Assembly: GCA_004375965.1 (NCBI GenBank)
Contig: SOIS01000073.1
Coordinates: 14,802-78,801 of the forward strand
Direction: 5' to 3'
Length of the DNA: 64,000 nt
Source: Candidatus Cloacimonadota bacterium
Lineage (GTDB): Bacteria > Hydrothermota > E44-bin80
The notes under the pieces: generated by a model
What the model saw: only the letters and a program-made list of their open reading frames with translations
What the model was told of the DNA's origin: nothing
The model's database searches: none
Translations under genes and position numbers: made by a program
Part shown: piece by piece, positions 17,538-37,814 of the stretch
Layout: each line of letters starts with the position of its first letter
Numbering within the stretch: position 1 is the stretch's first letter

Positions 17538-19268
17538 TTATTGCATTTGTTTATGTTTCTCTATATGCAATAGATTCAATTGAACCGTTTTCTTATTCCT
17601 GTACATATGTTCCGTAAGTTGATAATAGATAGAATAAATCTTTTTCCCAATCTCAATCTCCTTTATGGATTCGCCTCTTCCAAAACCAATCGTTTCAAAT
17701 ATAACGTTATCTTCCCTCGTCTTTATTTTTAAATGATTAGTTCCAACTATTTTTGGATAACCAACAAAATCAACATTTTCCGTCAGGAAAACAGGCTGTG
17801 GGTTTTTTATTCCAAAGGGCTCAAGTCTCTTGAGTTCAGAAAGTAATTTATTGTCGATCTCTTTAAAAGGTAGCATACAGTCGCAGTTTAACTCCGGTAT
17901 CAAATCATCTTCTTTCAACTGTTCTTTTACAACCTTATTAAATGCCTTACGGAAATCAGAAATCATATCCTTATCTATTGTGATACCAGCCGCATAACGA
18001 TGACCTCCATATCGAATCAAAAATTCTTTGCACCTGTCAAGTGCATCGAGAATGTAAAAGGGTTTAATGCTCCTTCCTGATCCTTTTCCAAATTCACCTG
18101 CTGTTGATATAAGAATGGTCGGCCTTGAATACTTATCTGCTATCTTAGATGCTGCAATTCCAACTACCCCTTCATGCCAGTCTTCCTTTGCAAGCACAAT
18201 CGCATTTATACCTTTATCATATCCTTCCCTTTCGATAATTTCAATACTCTCGTTCATCACCTTTTTATGAAGTTCCTGTCTTACCTTATTTGTTCGATCA
18301 AGAAGATTGGCATATTCCCAAGCAAGACCTCTATCCTCAGTAAGCAACAGTTCAACTGATTTAATTGCAGTATCAAGCCTTCCAATTGCATTCAACCGTG
18401 GACCAAGGATATAACCTATCTCGTAAGTACCAGCAATATTCCCCTTTTTTAGACCCGACTTCTGAATAAGTGCTAAAAGACCTATTTTATCAGTCTTATT
18501 CAGCATCTCAATCCCTTTCTTTGCAAGTATTCTATTCTCTCCAGTCAAAGGAACAATATCTGCAATAGTTCCAAGTGCAACAAGGTCCAAATCTTTAAAG
18601 ATCTCTCTTCTATCTCTTCTATTTTTAATAAAAAGTGCTTCGATAAGCTTAAAGGCAACACCTACACCAGCCAATTCCTTAAAAGGATATGTCTCCCCTT
18701 CTACTTTCGGATCAATGATCGCAAATGCACCCTTTGAATCACCCGCTGGAGTATGATGGTCAGTAACTATCACATCTATTCCCAATTTCTTTGCCAGTTG
18801 GATCTCATCTGCTGCATTTATTCCACAATCAACAGTTATAATGAGCTTGAACCCTCTTTTTTTTATACTTCTGATTCCTTCCTCTGATACTCCATAGCCT
18901 TCTCTTATTCTATGCGGAATGTAATAGTATGAATTCGCATTCAGTTCATGAAGATTTCTTACAAGGAGGGCAATAGATGAGACCCCATCTACGTCGTAAT
19001 CTCCATAAATAAGGATGGGTTCTTTCTCTTTAATTGCCCTCATGATCCTATTGGTCGCCTTATCCATATCCCTGAAAAGAAATGGGTCAAAAAGCCTATC
19101 AAAGGAAGGGGATAAGAAATTCTTGATTTCTTCAACACTTCTGTATCCCCTGTTCAGTATAATTTGAATAATGGGACGAGAAAGTGAAAGTTCATTTTGA
19201 AGTTTCACAACCTCGTCGCTACTGAATTCTTTAGGGGGGTTGCATTTTATATCCCGTTCTTTCTTCAT
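17538..19268 (-). CDS. recJ: single-stranded-DNA-specific exonuclease RecJ
   Basis: DHH motifs (YGDYDVDGVSS, ITVDCGINA, VIVTDHHTP) and DHHA1 (GGHRYAAGI). Confidence 0.85.
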   Translation of the reverse strand: MKKERDIKCNPPKEFSSDEVVKLQNELSLSRPIIQIILNRGYRSVEEIKNFLSPSFDRLFDPFLFRDMDKATNRIMRAIKEKEPILIYGDYDVDGVSSIALLVRNLHELNANSYYYIPHRIREGYGVSEEGIRSIKKRGFKLIITVDCGINAADEIQLAKKLGIDVIVTDHHTPAGDSKGAFAIIDPKVEGETYPFKELAGVGVAFKLIEALFIKNRRDRREIFKDLDLVALGTIADIVPLTGENRILAKKGIEMLNKTDKIGLLALIQKSGLKKGNIAGTYEIGYILGPRLNAIGRLDTAIKSVELLLTEDRGLAWEYANLLDRTNKVRQELHKKVMNESIEIIEREGYDKGINAIVLAKEDWHEGVVGIAASKIADKYSRPTILISTAGEFGKGSGRSIKPFYILDALDRCKEFLIRYGGHRYAAGITIDKDMISDFRKAFNKVVKEQLKEDDLIPELNCDCMLPFKEIDNKLLSELKRLEPFGIKNPQPVFLTENVDFVGYPKIVGTNHLKIKTREDNVIFETIGFGRGESIKEIEIGKKIYSIYYQLTEHMYRNKKTVQLNLLHIEKHKQMQ

Positions 19269-19357: not shown

Positions 19358-20011
19358 CTATTTCTTGAGTATTTTTCTGAATTTTGAAAAAGAACGTGCA
19401 GCTTCGAATCCCGTAACATCCCTATCTCTAAAGAAGAAACCATCTTCTAATCTTAAAAATTTATTCGAAATAGCAAAGGTAATCGCTTTATATGTATAAT
19501 CGGAGAGGGGAACATCCTTCATTTCATAATGATACACCTTCTTGCTGTGAAAAAATGGTAGGGTCTTTGAAACCCTATAAAGGATAATTGCGAGTTGAAA
19601 CCTTTTTACATCATCATCCGGATAGAATTTCCCATCTGGAAAATTTCTCATCCACCCAATTTTCAGTGCATCAACAATATACGGCTCTTCATCTAACCCT
19701 ATAATGTCAAAAATTTTACCATTTTCAACAGGATACATATCCGGATTTTCTTCGAAAAAAGGTTGGAGATCATTCAAATAGTAGACCAAAAGAAAAGCTA
19801 TAACCTTTCTTTTTACCCTGTTCTGTGAAAGAATATTTATAAGATGCTCTTTTTCCCAGTCTTTTTTTAACTGGATCAGGGTTGTTGGTTTTGTCTTTCT
19901 TACTGGCACACACCCTACTGTGCAAATAAGAAAAAAAACAATTAACCCCGTTAGAGACCTCGTCAAAAAGGACAAAACATTCTTTAGAAATATCTTAATA
20001 CATCTTTTCAT
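19358..20011 (-). CDS. hypothetical lipoprotein, possible SLH-like C-terminal region
   Basis: Signal peptide plus Cys (LICTVGC). C-terminal FPDGKFYPDDDVKRFQLAIILYRV and GFFFRDRDVTGFEAARSFSKF are reminiscent of SLH repeats. Confidence 0.35.
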   Translation of the reverse strand: MKRCIKIFLKNVLSFLTRSLTGLIVFFLICTVGCVPVRKTKPTTLIQLKKDWEKEHLINILSQNRVKRKVIAFLLVYYLNDLQPFFEENPDMYPVENGKIFDIIGLDEEPYIVDALKIGWMRNFPDGKFYPDDDVKRFQLAIILYRVSKTLPFFHSKKVYHYEMKDVPLSDYTYKAITFAISNKFLRLEDGFFFRDRDVTGFEAARSFSKFRKILKK

Positions 20012-20050
20012 TGCTGCCCTGAAGGTCGACGAATTCTCTAACGGGGTTAA
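19943..20050. repeat. 15-bp perfect inverted repeat pair TTAACCCCGTTAGAG / CTCTAACGGGGTTAA with 78-nt spacer
   Basis: Arms at 19943-19957 and 20036-20050 flank the start codon and first codons of the lipoprotein gene 19358..20011. Confidence 0.65.
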
Positions 20051-20081
20051 CCTGGAAAAATAATATTTAAATCTTAAAACT

Positions 20082-21005
20082 CTAATACGTTAATGTATCC
20101 CTTATTATGTAAGAGATTGGATTTACTGGTCTATTTAGTATTCTAACCTCATAATGAAGGTGTGTCCCTGTTGCTAAACCGGTTCTTCCCATTGTTGCAA
20201 TGAGGTCACCTCTTTTCGCTTCTTGACCTTCCTTGACAAATATCCTTTGGAGATGTCCGTATTTCGTCTTGAATCCATAACCATGATCAATGGATAAATA
20301 ATTCCCGAATCCTGCCTGCCTGCCTACAAAATCAACTACTCCATCTGCAGTGGCATAAATATGCGTTCCAGGAAGACTTGCAATGTCTAAACCTGTATGG
20401 AAGTGAATAACCCTCCTTATGGGATGTCTTCGATAGCCAAAACCAGAAGAGATGTAACCACTGGTGGGCCAAATGGATGGAGTATGTCGTTTAAGGTCAA
20501 TAATAGATGTAAGCTTTCTGTAAACCTCTTCGTAGGATGTTTGCTCCAGATCAACAAGTTTTTCAGCAAAGTTTACCTCTTTTACTAAATCACTAACTAT
20601 TTTATATGAAGATTTAGAGAGTTTTCCTTTTAATGTATCAAGTGCTGATGGACCACCTATACCCATTATCCTTAATTTCCTTTCCAGAGGAGATACATCA
20701 GTTGCATATCTCAATTTGTCATTAAAAGCTGAATATAAATCTATCTTCTTTTTAAGGGATTTATTTTCTTCATCTATCATTTTAAGGGAAGCAATATAAC
20801 GTTCCTTGACTGTTACCTGATTCCTAAATTCAGAAAATAAAGAGCGTTTATTTATCCCTCTAATTGATAGTAATGAAGAGCATAAGAACAAAAAAGCAAT
20901 AAGTGAAAGCAGTACAAAGAGATAAGTGTCTTTGAAGATAAACTGATAAATACCCTTTTCTGTTATAATACTAAGTGTCCAACTGAATCTCCTCACTCTT
21001 CTCAT
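20082..21005 (-). CDS. M23 family metallopeptidase
   Basis: HTGLDIA...GTHIYATADGVV...GFGNYLSIDHGYG...THLHYEV. Confidence 0.8.
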   Translation of the reverse strand: MRRVRRFSWTLSIITEKGIYQFIFKDTYLFVLLSLIAFLFLCSSLLSIRGINKRSLFSEFRNQVTVKERYIASLKMIDEENKSLKKKIDLYSAFNDKLRYATDVSPLERKLRIMGIGGPSALDTLKGKLSKSSYKIVSDLVKEVNFAEKLVDLEQTSYEEVYRKLTSIIDLKRHTPSIWPTSGYISSGFGYRRHPIRRVIHFHTGLDIASLPGTHIYATADGVVDFVGRQAGFGNYLSIDHGYGFKTKYGHLQRIFVKEGQEAKRGDLIATMGRTGLATGTHLHYEVRILNRPVNPISYIIRDTLTY

Positions 21006-23319: not shown

Positions 23320-23321
23320 AA

Positions 23322-23349
23322 GTAAGGGCGTTCAATTGAACGCCCCTAC
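23322..23349. repeat. GC-rich palindromic hairpin element, copy 1 (GTAAGGGCGTTCAATTGAACGCCCCTAC)
   Basis: 28-nt palindrome (one mismatch) centred on CAATTG, between purA stop and the GT4 start. Minus-strand transcript continues UUACUUUUGCUGUUU. Confidence 0.7.
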
Positions 23350-23368
23350 TAACTCGTTTGATGGATAA

Positions 23369-25592: not shown

Positions 25593-25622
25593 CCCCGTTA
25601 GACAATTTCATATCTAACGGGG
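25593..25622. repeat. hairpin CCCCGTTAG-(12 nt)-CTAACGGGG, same family as 19943/33021
   Basis: Shares the CCCCGTTAGA arm with the 19943 repeat. Intergenic, upstream of the zinc-ribbon gene 25724. Confidence 0.55.
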
Positions 25623-31329: not shown

Positions 31330-31451
31330 CCAGCTAACCTCCTTCTATATTTGTATCCAAATCTATATCTTTTCTTAATTAAACCATTTTCATTACATTG
31401 TCAAGGGAAAATCGTTGAAACAACATTGTAGGGGCAAAGGTTGCCCCTACA

Positions 31452-32982: not shown

Positions 32983-33066
32983 GGTAGCCGCAGGCTTTTG
33001 CCTGCGTATTTTTACACACCTTAACCCCGTAAATGGCATTTTACGGGGTTAAAAGGTGCGGCTACC
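32983..33066 (-). other. structured intergenic element (nested hairpins, three-way-junction-like) between cdd and ruvX
   Basis: Outer stem GGTAGCCGC/GCGGCTACC encloses hairpin AGGC-TTTT-GCCT (extendable to CGCAGGC/GCCTGCG) and hairpin TTAACCCCGTAAA-tggcat-TTTACGGGGTTAA. It overlaps the cdd stop codon. Confidence 0.5.
33021..33052. repeat. hairpin TTAACCCCGTAAA-tggcat-TTTACGGGGTTAA, same family
   Basis: Shares the TTAACCCCGT arm with the 19943 repeat. Part of the cdd-ruvX structured element. Confidence 0.55.
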
Positions 33067-33475
33067 TTATCCTTTTATCCTTTTTCCTTTTTCCTTGAAG
33101 CTCGAATCCCTCGGGCAATAACTCCTTCAAGGAATAACTCTTTATTCTATTGTTTTGAAGCGTAATGATGGTAATATCGGGAGCAAACTCAAACAGCACC
33201 TGTCTGCAAGCACCGCATGGAAGGACTGAGGTGTTTTCCTGACCAACAACTGCAAGTTTCAAAAAGTCCCTTTCCCCTTCTGAAACCGCCTTGAAAAGAG
33301 CCACCCTCTCGGCACAGCAGGTTAACCCAAAAGAACTGTTTTCTACATTACACCCTGTGTAAACTGCTCCACTCTTTGTAAGTATTGCAGCACCTACTGA
33401 AAATTTTGAATAAGGAGTATATGCATACTTCCATGCTTCTTTTGCCTTATCTAATAATTCTCTATCTGTCATCAT
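33062..33475 (-). CDS. cdd: cytidine deaminase
   Basis: CAERVALFKAV...PCGACRQVLFEF zinc-binding motifs. 137 aa. Confidence 0.85.
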   Translation of the reverse strand: MMTDRELLDKAKEAWKYAYTPYSKFSVGAAILTKSGAVYTGCNVENSSFGLTCCAERVALFKAVSEGERDFLKLAVVGQENTSVLPCGACRQVLFEFAPDITIITLQNNRIKSYSLKELLPEGFELQGKRKKDKRIR

Positions 33476-37786: not shown

Positions 37787-37814
37787 GTAGGGGCGTTCAA
37801 TTGAACGCCCCTAC
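37787..37814. repeat. GC-rich palindromic hairpin element, copy 2 (GTAGGGGCGTTCAATTGAACGCCCCTAC)
   Basis: Perfect 28-nt palindrome, near-identical to copy 1, between the small secreted protein gene and the CN-hydrolase gene. Confidence 0.7.

Follow-up and report, generated by a model that had tools for sequence, protein, structure and literature searches.

In the 64-kb stretch of DNA that was analysed (the window), the 5′ end of a gene for a lipoprotein-like protein carries an imperfect palindrome, locus 1, which is very likely a copy of a very small mobile element that sits in frame and supplies the start codon of the gene; the family to which it belongs occurs in many uncultured phyla. A miniature transposable element was among the candidate explanations in an earlier note on this DNA, and this reading is supported by conserved terminal inverted repeats, 4-bp direct repeats, presence/absence at orthologous sites and the occurrence of the same ends at at least 120 loci in other genomes. 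The features concerned are listed by position in the window.

19358–20011, minus strand: lipoprotein-like gene, 217 aa, flanked by an M23 peptidase gene and recJ.
19931–19938, minus strand: U8 run on the mRNA, 7 nt past the last G of the hairpin core, coding for Val-Phe-Phe in the hydrophobic core.
19942–19945, no strand assigned: TTAA target-site duplication, mRNA-downstream copy, coding for Leu and the first base of Ile in the signal peptide.
19946–20046, minus strand: element proper, a 101-bp imperfect palindrome from CCCC to GGGG, defined by coordinates, length and family consensus.
19946–19957, minus strand: downstream terminal inverted repeat, read on the mRNA as TCTCTAACGGGG and coding for Ser-Leu-Thr-Gly (codons 19–22).
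20009–20011, minus strand: ATG start codon of the lipoprotein gene, within the element, recognised by the N-terminal extension conserved in homologs.
20017–20020, minus strand: AGGG, candidate Shine-Dalgarno sequence 5 nt before the ATG, within the element and paired in the predicted hairpin.
20035–20046, minus strand: upstream terminal inverted repeat, part of the 5′ untranslated region, read on the mRNA as CCCCGTTAGAGA and matching the family consensus at 12/12 positions.
20047–20050, no strand assigned: TTAA target-site duplication, mRNA-upstream copy, one of the repeats flanking the element.
25593–25622, no strand assigned: locus 2 mini copy, 30 bp, CCCCGTTAGA-caatttcata-TCTAACGGGG (10-nt loop).
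33021–33052, no strand assigned: locus 3 divergent mini copy, TTAA + CCCCGTAAAtggcatTTTACGGGG + TTAA, probable member.

Among inverted repeats within 150 nt, none in the whole window is longer than locus 1. Its arm TTAACCCCGTTAGAG lies at 19942–19956, not at 19943–19957 as the earlier note had it, and the exact reverse complement is found where it was placed, at 20036–20050. The perfect arms measure 16 nt (19942–19957 and 20035–20050, with 77 nt between them) and reach 23 nt at 91% of identity (19942–19964 and 20028–20050). One arm is indeed upstream of the ATG and the other within codons, at a distance of 24 nt (not 25) and in codons 19–24 (not 19–23), respectively. The TTAA direct repeats, the in-frame donation of a start codon and the spread over many phyla had escaped the earlier note. 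Both arms of the element agree with the family consensus throughout (12/12); small (101 bp), without an internal transposase gene and flanked by a target-site duplication (TTAA/TTAA), the copy has the anatomy by which prokaryotic MITEs are recognised.

The element and one TTAA together comprise 105 bp (35 codons), and hence the reading frame of the lipoprotein gene is kept. The insertion point is in the signal peptide, MKRCIKIFLKNVLSFLTRSLTG-LIVFFLICTVG|C, at the junction of its charged and hydrophobic parts. No in-frame start codon exists upstream of the element, the long N-terminus is common to the lipoprotein homologs, and the candidate ribosome-binding site, the ATG and the first 22 codons of the gene all come from the element. 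Judged by its sequence, the AGGG at 20017–20020 would act as the Shine-Dalgarno sequence. The 217-aa product gave a faint S-layer-homology match, and an exact-protein look-up showed that it is not on record.

We propose that the element landed at this charged/hydrophobic boundary; its interior now serves as ribosome-binding site, start codon (ATG, 20011) and source of the first 22 residues, and its downstream repeat encodes Ser-Leu-Thr-Gly. Lipoprotein signal peptidase would cut at the lipobox Cys and the element-coded residues would be discarded together with the signal peptide; the mature lipoprotein should be unchanged as a consequence, which would account for the insertion being tolerated and fixed. 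The two element ends would pair on the mRNA, and the resulting long hairpin, a by-product of the palindrome, would bury the ribosome-binding site and the ATG; in this model it probably lowers or conditions translation, e.g., via needed melting or RNase III cleavage.

Relatives (L-numbered) were found via the neighbouring M23 peptidase, and the synteny of the lipoprotein locus (M23 peptidase gene, recJ) was examined in them. When the element and one TTAA are removed from locus 1, what remains (...FSR-LIVFFLICTVGC) is colinear with the element-free ortholog L015 (MKQNTK-FIIVFLICIAGC). The comparison of orthologous loci, suggested in the earlier note, did reveal presence/absence: L003 has the element and L015 does not, while their flanks are ~97% identical. 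The junction between the two is not a clean empty site, with 12 nt missing and clustered substitutions alongside. Presence/absence at orthologous sites, another hallmark of prokaryotic MITEs, is also seen at locus 2 when the window is compared with L003 and L006. A simple insertion absent from all orthologs was considered for locus 1 and rejected: a homologous N-terminal extension persists in most of them, which implies that the insertion is old, and a decayed insertion is common to orthologs at 58–66% of protein identity. The upstream terminal inverted repeat is kept in L003, L005 and L008. Despite the age of the insertion, both ends at locus 1 still agree perfectly with the consensus (12/12), which is not accounted for by neutral decay and hints that the hairpin or the ends are under selection in the lineage of the window.

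The two other loci are found exactly where the earlier note had described them. Locus 2 (CCCCGTTAGA-10 nt-TCTAACGGGG, 25593–25622) lies between the promoters from which a 246-aa gene and a zinc-ribbon gene diverge and shares the consensus end CCCCGTTAGA with locus 1, and it has no target-site duplication (flanks CTTG/TGAA). In L003 and L006, the orthologous intergenic regions keep the promoter hexamers and have no such palindrome. Locus 3 (TTAACCCCGTAAA-6 nt-TTTACGGGGTTAA, 33021–33052) lies 9 nt past the stop codon of a cytidine deaminase gene (33062–33475, minus strand), ahead of ruvX. Its end, CCCCGTAAA, is a rare variant that deviates at positions where 98–99% of the family copies agree, and by its sequence it is a probable, divergent member of the 12-bp-end family. 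The grouping of the three loci in one family thus holds for loci 1 and 2, which carry the consensus end, and probably for locus 3. Loci 2 and 3 would both be intergenic mini copies of ~30 bp, from the family of locus 1 or one closely related to it. The 8–9-mer counts in the 64-kb window are mildly unusual (AACCCCGT: 4 matches vs. 0.76 expected), and CCCCGTTAG with at most one mismatch shows no enrichment there.

The ends of locus 1 recur far beyond the window. We scanned one genome per GTDB species with the pattern ACCCCGTTAGAG-N60-90-TAACGGGGT and found at least 120 loci where ~8 would be expected (analytic estimate for a 21-nt pattern, 31 spacings and 596 Gb). They are held by at least 106 assemblies, including two single-cell genomes among the matches listed; hosts among the matches listed belong to the candidate phyla radiation, Omnitrophota, Planctomycetota, Deltaproteobacteria, Elusimicrobia, Nitrospirota and others, and the identical 12-bp end occurs in at least eight phyla. 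Across 161 copies (322 arms), the family end is a 12-bp terminal inverted repeat, CCCCGTTAGA(G/A)(A/G), of which positions 1–10 are 95–100% conserved and past which (beyond position 12) conservation stops; such conservation of terminal inverted repeats among copies is likewise typical of prokaryotic MITEs. Identical 4-mers flank 106 of the 161 copies (shuffled controls: mean 18.8, maximum 36), while reverse-complementary flanks occur in only six (19.8 expected). The target-site duplication of 4 bp is usually TNNA, and TTAA at locus 1; copies unconstrained by the search pattern also have direct repeats (CTAA, TGAG, TCAG, CGAG, CTTG, TATG).

Family copies range in size from 28 to 152 bp, and minimal copies of 26–30 bp occur. 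Their interiors are unrelated and differ from genome to genome; the locus 1 loop found no match by blastn against all the loci of the genome scan. The window holds three loci; elsewhere, up to four contigs per assembly carry copies among the matches listed, some 8-kb stretches contain several copies and on some contigs they are 0.6–3 kb apart. A scan of viral contigs with the element ends returned zero matches, and a description of the 12-bp-end family was not found in the literature by sequence string, peptide string or topic.

Copies elsewhere are located at gene boundaries, namely at stop codons, ATGAA starts and prepilin cleavage sites. ATGAA starts hit by the element are remade as GTG. 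In 19 copies, an ORF of at least 90 aa opens at a GTG or ATG made of the last base of the element and the duplication, and 15 of these retain the original ATG or GTG at the left junction. Pfam domains begin at residue 4–5 of the rebuilt ORFs (GAPDH, LepA-like GTPase, response regulator, NAD synthase), and one rebuilt-start ORF matches a TsaD (tRNA threonylcarbamoyltransferase) domain. In 22 copies, the end of the upstream ORF falls precisely within the left duplication, and in 19 copies this ORF is closed by the TAG of the left repeat, with zero copies at neighbouring offsets. Insertions in type IV prepilin genes are at the Gly|Phe-Thr cleavage site, remade as SLTG|FT, by which the Ser-Leu-Thr-Gly reading frame of the downstream repeat at locus 1 is also used in prepilin leaders. 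Downstream of 13 copies comes LTG|F-x-x-x-E with a hydrophobic helix, and 10 of these copies are in frame with the original leader upstream (e.g., MGNRKRG|FTPLE). The displaced starts and the stop-codon positions serve as internal “empty-site” proofs of insertion. Translational coupling, with a leader frame from the displaced ATG ending at the right-repeat TAA or a GTGA overlap, is not supported, as only 8 of the 19 copies end there or fuse in frame. The gene-boundary pattern could be due to the survival of harmless insertions in compact genomes and not to target choice.

Neither an autonomous element nor a transposase with the same ends was found in 830 kb of flanking DNA around 120 of the loci, and the cognate autonomous insertion sequence that goes with prokaryotic MITEs is thus missing from the DNA searched. 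Repeat pairs 160–6000 bp apart with matching duplications, candidate full-length elements, all turned out to be separate small copies with common 4-mers. Clustering of 866 neighbouring ORFs yielded type IV pilus proteins and housekeeping genes as the recurrent families, and no transposase. We infer that the element is mobilised in trans by a DDE-type transposase. The DDE groups IS1380/piggyBac type, IS5 and IS701 make 4-bp duplications, often TTAA-like, and have ends beginning with CCC; the likeness of the element, its 4-bp duplication and its CCC ends, is a lead only, and as compared to IS1380/piggyBac, the target of the 12-bp-end family is TNNA, not strictly TTAA.

The minus-strand RNA of locus 1 folds at −48.2 kcal/mol (z = −5.5), and none of 200 shuffles is as stable, which answers the folding-energy check of the 5′ untranslated region proposed in the earlier note. 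The predicted hairpin covers the ribosome-binding site and the ATG, and the sequestration of both that the note had envisaged stands as a folding prediction, with no covariation to go with it and with the hairpin decayed in L004 and L009. That the structure was selected as a cis-regulatory RNA, the 5′ untranslated region pairing with codons 19–24 to form a thermosensor, a repressor stem or an RNase III site, strikes us as rather unlikely. The strong and unusual fold agrees with it, and so do the stem retained in L003 (65% of protein identity; −33.9 kcal/mol, z = −3.3), two changes in L008 (on the mRNA strand, one C-to-U that retains a G-U pair and one U-to-C that makes a G-U into a G-C), an upstream arm and leader far more conserved between the window and L003 than nearby non-coding DNA, and the perfect ends despite the age of the insertion. 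However, the covariation score across relatives is 0.178 vs. 0.177 in shuffles (paired cells 82.9% vs. 81.2%), and double changes occur at 4 pairs vs. 2.4 expected, a value reached in 103 of 500 shuffles: the compensatory changes that mark a structured cis-regulatory RNA are not seen in excess. L005 has an uncompensated A-C mismatch, L004 retains a decayed hairpin (z = −1.5), and L006 and L009 have none. With covariation lacking and the hairpin decayed in L004 and L009, where the gene is kept, the cis-regulatory RNA put forward in the earlier note is unsupported as an evolved regulator. Moreover, no Rfam family reached its gathering score in the whole window, only sub-threshold generic hairpins appeared at 19900–20100 at E up to 10, and a tRNA scan found nothing. 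Identical ends in at least 120 loci of unrelated context also speak against it: the sequence is explained by the element, not by the lipoprotein gene.

Other readings fare worse. An intrinsic terminator or attenuator of the upstream M23 peptidase gene, in which the long hairpin and the U8 run would block read-through into the lipoprotein gene, is improbable. After the hairpin, the minus strand reads UUAAUUG-UUUUUUUU; the M23 gene stops 31 nt upstream, with no other terminator in the gap between the two genes. A terminator role of the U8 run at 19931–19938 is no more than a possibility. The stem-loop of ~110 nt is much above canonical size and was not called by the consensus scan, and the U run begins after 7 AU-rich nucleotides past the GC core and is interrupted in L003; moreover, the Val-Phe-Phe-Leu-Ile codons of the signal peptide account for this run. 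An inverton, in which the segment with the ribosome-binding site and the ATG flips to switch the surface protein on and off, would suit inverted repeats around the translation start of a surface lipoprotein, and a like arrangement is seen at pilin gene starts elsewhere, pilins being typical phase-variable targets. It is very improbable nonetheless: all seven sequences compared (the window, L001, L002, L007, L008, L005, L003) have one orientation, flanking direct repeats are a signature of transposition and not of inversion, the copies of 26–30 bp have nothing to invert and no recurrent recombinase gene is nearby. We give even less credence to an operator palindrome for a transcription factor common to the three loci, as offered in the earlier note, despite the position of locus 2 between two divergent promoters and the identical half-site at loci 1 and 2. 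The half-sites are spaced 77, 10 and 6 nt apart at loci 1, 2 and 3, incompatible with one dimeric regulator; the orthologous promoter regions at locus 2 keep their hexamers and have no palindrome. These two results largely refute the operator; furthermore, locus 3 comes after a stop codon, and family copies have target-site duplications.

Several known repeat classes were set against the transposable element at locus 1. Integron attC sites resemble it in being imperfect palindromes of 60–140 nt with conserved ends, variable interiors and cross-phylum spread, and were rejected: the core order is reversed (GTTAGAG...CTCTAAC on both strands vs. RYYYAAC...GTTRRRY), flanking direct repeats are present, copies sit on housekeeping start and stop codons and no integrase is nearby. 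The neighbours of family copies are housekeeping and pilus genes. REP/REPIN (RAYT) sequences were dismissed since the element ends start with CCCC and not GTAG, a duplication is present and there is no recurrent neighbouring transposase. Tn3-type ends read GGGG outward and were rejected on anatomy, the element reading CCCC outward.

Bacterial MITEs such as the Neisseria Correia element, pneumococcal RUP and cyanobacterial Nezha (reviews: PMC10969869, PMC3184786) share with the element a size of roughly 30–150 bp, the lack of a coded transposase, terminal inverted repeats, short direct repeats, stable RNA hairpins, a location in or beside genes and presence/absence between relatives. Known MITE families, however, are confined to a genus or family, whereas the 12-bp end occurs in at least eight phyla; the element also differs in interiors unrelated between genomes, in minimal copies of only 26–30 bp and in having no known parent insertion sequence. 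Completely differing interiors are unusual for a MITE family from one parent. Neisseria REP2 and the Borrelia upstream inverted-repeat sequences (PMC3184786) are among the closest known systems; REP2 does not have the terminal-repeat and duplication anatomy of the element, and rebuilding of starts or stops from its own end bases is not reported for it.

The Rickettsia palindromic elements, as cited in PMC10969869, are ~150 bp long, limited to Rickettsia and inserted in the body of proteins. They resemble the element as in-frame palindromes translated without destroying the host protein, and differ from it in that the element is found at gene boundaries or in cleavable N-terminal leaders, the mature protein being expected unchanged. 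No sequence relation between the two was seen. The Chunjie MITE of Geobacter uraniireducens, as summarised in PMC3184786 (Chen et al. 2008), measures 178–235 bp, with 21-bp repeats and 9-bp direct repeats. It is described there as lying within an operon without disturbing it and as forming a very stable RNA hairpin, both as in the element; by these measures, the 12-bp repeats and 4-bp direct repeats of the element make it a different family.

A broader reading, to which we would give somewhat less than even chances, is that these are undescribed pan-phylum “self-healing” elements, whose ends are shaped for silent insertion at gene boundaries, whose hairpin in the lineage of the window is a translational brake and whose mobilising enzyme has been transferred between phyla. 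The left end would give or keep a stop codon (the TAA or TGA of the duplication, or its own TAG), and the last G of the element with the duplicated TG would remake a start codon. In one frame, the right end would code for Ser-Leu-Thr-Gly, and insertion at the Gly|Phe-Thr site of a prepilin would recreate the peptidase site, the element peptide being lost with the leader. The copy in the window would be the lipoprotein version, domesticated as a translation start, with its hairpin retained in this lineage as a translational brake. Recent transfer of the enzyme between phyla would be marked by the ends that the candidate phyla radiation and Omnitrophota have in common with their likely hosts or neighbours. 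Identical ends in distant phyla point to a common mobilising enzyme and recent gene flow between phyla.

If as widespread as the scan suggests, the family is a frequent and apparently undescribed element of uncultured bacteria, especially of the small-genome candidate phyla radiation and Omnitrophota. Within it, there are clear natural cases in which a transposable element has donated a start codon, and in which an insertion is tolerated as cleavage of the signal peptide or prepilin leader should remove the insert. A functional end pair of 26 bp would be attractive for genetic tools, once the enzyme is found. As copies lie on start and stop codons and on leader peptides, gene callers will misplace starts or add spurious N-terminal extensions; the lipoprotein gene of the window, called at 183 aa vs. 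217 aa, is an example.

Locus 1 is an old, fixed, in-frame insertion of a very small palindromic mobile element that now provides the translation start of a lipoprotein gene, and the family behind it is a more interesting result than the window copy itself. The gene order around it is conserved in all relatives compared:

20082-21005, minus strand, M23 peptidase gene
19358-20011, minus strand, lipoprotein-like gene (217 aa)
17538-19268, minus strand, recJ

All three inverted-repeat loci of the earlier note are present as described, save that the first arm was placed one base off: TTAACCCCGTTAGAG occupies 19942-19956, and its exact reverse complement 20036-20050. The locus-1 repeat is also longer than stated (16 nt perfect, spacer of 77 nt); its arms extend to 23 nt at 91%, and no local inverted repeat in the whole window is longer. 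Loci 2 and 3 (25593-25622 and 33021-33052, respectively) are short hairpins, both perfect.

The core of locus 1 (CCCC...GGGG, 19946-20046, 101 bp) is flanked on each side by TTAA; element and one TTAA make 105 bp, or 35 codons. Their removal in silico yields ...FKYYFSR-LIVFFLICTVGC-VPVRK, colinear with L015, DNA of a relative in which the lipoprotein has a short classical signal peptide starting at an upstream ATG (MKQNTKFIIVFLICIAGC). L003, from another relative and about 97% identical to L015 in the flanks, carries the repeat element with its own ATG (MKRFMKILPKNVSSFITGSITG-FLICIAGC); at the L003 junction, 12 nt are missing and substitutions are clustered alongside, so that this is not a clean empty site. 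Homology spans the entire element in an alignment of seven relatives, and the insertion is, on these comparisons, old. Of the three candidates previously offered for locus 1, a cis-regulatory RNA, a miniature transposable element and an operator, the second is borne out by the TTAA flanks, the presence or absence in L003 and L015 and the family of ends.

A long N-terminus ahead of the lipobox Cys is common to most lipoprotein homologs, which makes the ATG at 20011 credible as the start; no start codon was found when the frame was read back from this ATG to a stop. The homologs form 15 protein clusters only; public records assign close ones to Candidatus Cloacimonadota and to candidate division WOR-3. 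Public calls of the start conflict: three records (P0003, P0006, P0007) give 183 aa from MPVRK, past the lipobox Cys, and others give 213-222 aa; a 5′ end derived from the element is probably what misleads gene callers. In L014 (8930-9000), from a WOR-3 relative, the signal-peptide frame before the lipobox (KILKSKAYFSKFAVILFLCITGC) is devoid of ATG, GTG and TTG, reflecting either a rare start codon or an assembly error. The right end of locus 1 is read as Ser-Leu-Thr-Gly, followed by the hydrophobic core and the lipobox of the lipoprotein (LIVFFLICTVG|C). Signal peptidase II cuts before the lipobox Cys, and the element-encoded residues should therefore be missing from the mature lipoprotein.

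Scanning public genomes (one per GTDB species) for the element ends, ACCCCGTTAGAG-N60-90-TAACGGGGT, we obtained at least 120 loci, against an estimated chance expectation of about 8 (596 Gb × 2 strands × 31 spacings / 4^21). The matches listed come from 106 assemblies, two of them single-cell genomes, and from many independent studies, so that an assembly artefact is an unlikely source. The matches listed include no isolate genome, and none of 2.9 million viral contigs matched the ends.

Table. Loci among the matches listed, by taxon.
Candidate phyla radiation, 61
Omnitrophota, 16
Planctomycetota, 9
Deltaproteobacteria-type, 9
Elusimicrobia, 5
Nitrospirota, 3
Bdellovibrionales, 2
Actinomycetota, 1
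Gammaproteobacteria, 1
Stahlbacteria, 1
Unclassified, 12

Within the matches listed, 161 copies could be delimited by the core alone. Their end consensus is CCCCGTTAGA(G/A)(A/G), with positions 1-10 conserved at 95-100% and no conservation past position 12; the perfect stem is usually 13 bp. Lengths group at about 29, about 80 and 100-107 bp, and it is the search pattern that fixes the upper range. Identical 4-mers flank 106 of the 161 copies, as against a mean of 18.8 and a maximum of 36 in shuffled controls, and reverse-complementary 4-mers only six (19.8 expected). The most frequent duplications are TAAA/TTTA, TGAA/TTCA and TCAA/TTGA; copies free of the pattern constraint have CTAA, TGAG, TCAG, CGAG, CTTG and TATG. 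The copies are built like a MITE, with ends of 12 bp and a target-site duplication of 4 bp that is usually TNNA. Interiors are the same within one genome (matches L020, L026, L051) and unrelated across genomes, and that of the window copy matched none among the matches listed. These unrelated interiors are a puzzling feature of the family, as are, at locus 1, the still perfect ends of so old an insertion. Neither a transposase nor a full-length element with the same ends was found in the neighbourhoods of the listed loci; in its ends and duplication the family resembles DDE families with a 4-bp duplication and CCC ends.

Tandem copies share one 4-bp duplication (L020 2942-3105, L031 7-223, L039 529-746; junctions ...GGGG-CTCA-CCCC... 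and ...GGGG-TTTA-CCCC...), as expected if the junction left by one insertion forms a favourable target again for another. Variants with outermost T...A, not C...G, occur at L044 6076-6205, L102 5107-5223, L126 6297-6375 and L095 5305-5411. A 26-bp perfect palindrome, CCCCGTTAGAAAT|ATTTCTAACGGGG, is common to unrelated genomes (L041, L044, L059, e.g., 1513-1538, L078, L108); it consists of two ends with no interior, in several cases with its own 4-bp direct repeats.

Locus 1 fits this family exactly: both arms match the consensus at 12/12, and the element lies in frame between TTAA duplications. Locus 2, between two divergent promoters, follows the consensus end up to position 10 and has no duplication; the orthologous regions of the relatives L003 and L006 keep the promoter hexamers, the hairpin being missing. 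Locus 3 has TTAA on both flanks and an end, CCCCGTAAA, deviating at positions conserved in 98-99% of copies among the listed matches; it is a probable divergent family member. An outer 10-nt inverted repeat, GGTAGCCGCA...TGCGGCTACC (32983-33066), surrounds the locus-3 hairpin and overlaps both the cytidine deaminase stop codon and a terminator-like hairpin (32989-33006; CGCAGGCttttGCCTGCG and a T run); in part these three stems exclude one another, as in an attenuator.

Many copies among the matches listed sit at gene boundaries. Upstream ORFs of at least 90 codons stop exactly in the left duplication in 22 copies (TAA-A, TGA-A, TAG-A) and at a TAG within the left repeat in 19, with none ending at neighbouring offsets. 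At the right junction, a GTG made of the element's last base and the leading TG of the duplication (TGAA or TGGA) starts an ORF of at least 90 codons in 19 copies, 15 of which still have the original ATG or GTG at the left junction; the start is ATG in T...A-ended variants (L044, L102 and L126, L095 excepted). Pfam domains begin at residue 4-5 of such ORFs (GAPDH, LepA-type GTPase, response regulator, NAD synthase), and TsaD (tRNA threonylcarbamoyltransferase) also matches one. Several copies in ATGA stop/start overlaps keep both genes (e.g., L110, L034, L103, L126). Prepilin leaders, LTG|F-x-x-x-E with a hydrophobic helix, follow 13 copies in frame, 10 of them also sharing the frame of what appears to be the original leader upstream (MKQKIQKTNG|FTPLE..., MGNRKRG|FTPLE..., MKYQHKNKG|FTPLE...). 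The insertion point is GG-TTT-A^C, and right end plus duplication read TCT CTA ACG GGG TTT ACN (S-L-T-G|F-T); the right end of locus 1 shares the Ser-Leu-Thr-Gly. One pilin-like ORF reaches the Pfam threshold for the N-terminal methylation motif, and the neighbours that recur most are genes for the type IV pilus ATPase (PilB) and the platform protein (PilC). Length plus four is divisible by three in 76 of the 161 copies (about 54 expected at one third), a count inflated by within-genome duplicates. The boundary pattern may reflect either target choice or the survival of harmless insertions in compact genomes.

The minus-strand RNA of 19925-20075 is predicted to form a single long hairpin (-48.2 kcal/mol, z = -5.5; none of 200 shuffles as stable) containing AGGG (20017-20020) and the ATG (20009-20011). 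A stem of -48 kcal/mol over ribosome-binding site and start codon should affect translation of the lipoprotein gene, and very probably does. That it evolved as a regulator is unproven: the strong predicted fold, its retention in L003, two single-base changes in L008 that preserve pairing on the mRNA strand, the conservation of upstream arm and leader between window and L003, and arms still perfect despite the old insertion speak for such a role, but covariation does not exceed shuffled controls, L005 has one uncompensated mismatch, and L004 and L009 keep the gene though the hairpin has decayed. The hairpin is intact throughout the window clade, and undetectable in L006. We read it as a by-product of the element's palindromic nature. 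The U8 run at 19931-19938 could have a terminator role, though support for this is weak. The proposed operator is ruled out by the differing arm spacing and by orthologs without the palindrome. An invertible switch is unsupported, since the orientation is the same in every strain compared, the element has flanking direct repeats, and copies of 26 bp contain no segment that could flip.

Bacterial MITEs as a kind are well known (PMC10969869, PMC3184786), as are in-frame palindromic insertions, the Rickettsia RPEs (PMC10969869), and repeats carrying a ribosome-binding site and ATG, Neisseria REP2 (PMC3184786). Operon-neutral insertion is known for Chunjie (PMC3184786), which is a different family because it has 21-bp repeats and 9-bp direct repeats, as against 12-bp ends and a 4-bp duplication here. 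No description of the element family was found by sequence, peptide or topic in literature incompletely covered, so that "undescribed" is provisional. Apparently new are one 12-bp end across many phyla, interiors unrelated between genomes, minimal copies of 26-30 bp, and end bases that with the duplication remake stop codons, start codons and prepilin cleavage sites.

Between the M23 peptidase and lipoprotein genes, L003 (9841-9945) and L015 (1222-1325) have about 105 bp that are missing in the window. A separate hairpin (CTGCGATtatataaagatATCGCAAG) lies in this extra DNA, as does the ATG from which the L015 gene starts, and the stretch may be a further small insertion at this intergenic position. 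More distant relatives (L006 9740-9790, L010 90-140) carry another GC-rich palindrome (ATTGCGAGCCTGCCTCTGGCAGGCGTGGCAAT) in this spacer, which seems to accumulate small palindromes. A second hairpin family in the window, with a GTAG head, is intergenic in all cases (23321-23350, 37787-37814, 31427-31451; (A)GTAGGGGCGTTCAATTGAACGCCCCTAC twice, TGTAGGGGCAAaggTTGCCCCTACA once) and terminator-like by scan; these hairpins could be REP-like elements or just preferred terminators of the source genome.
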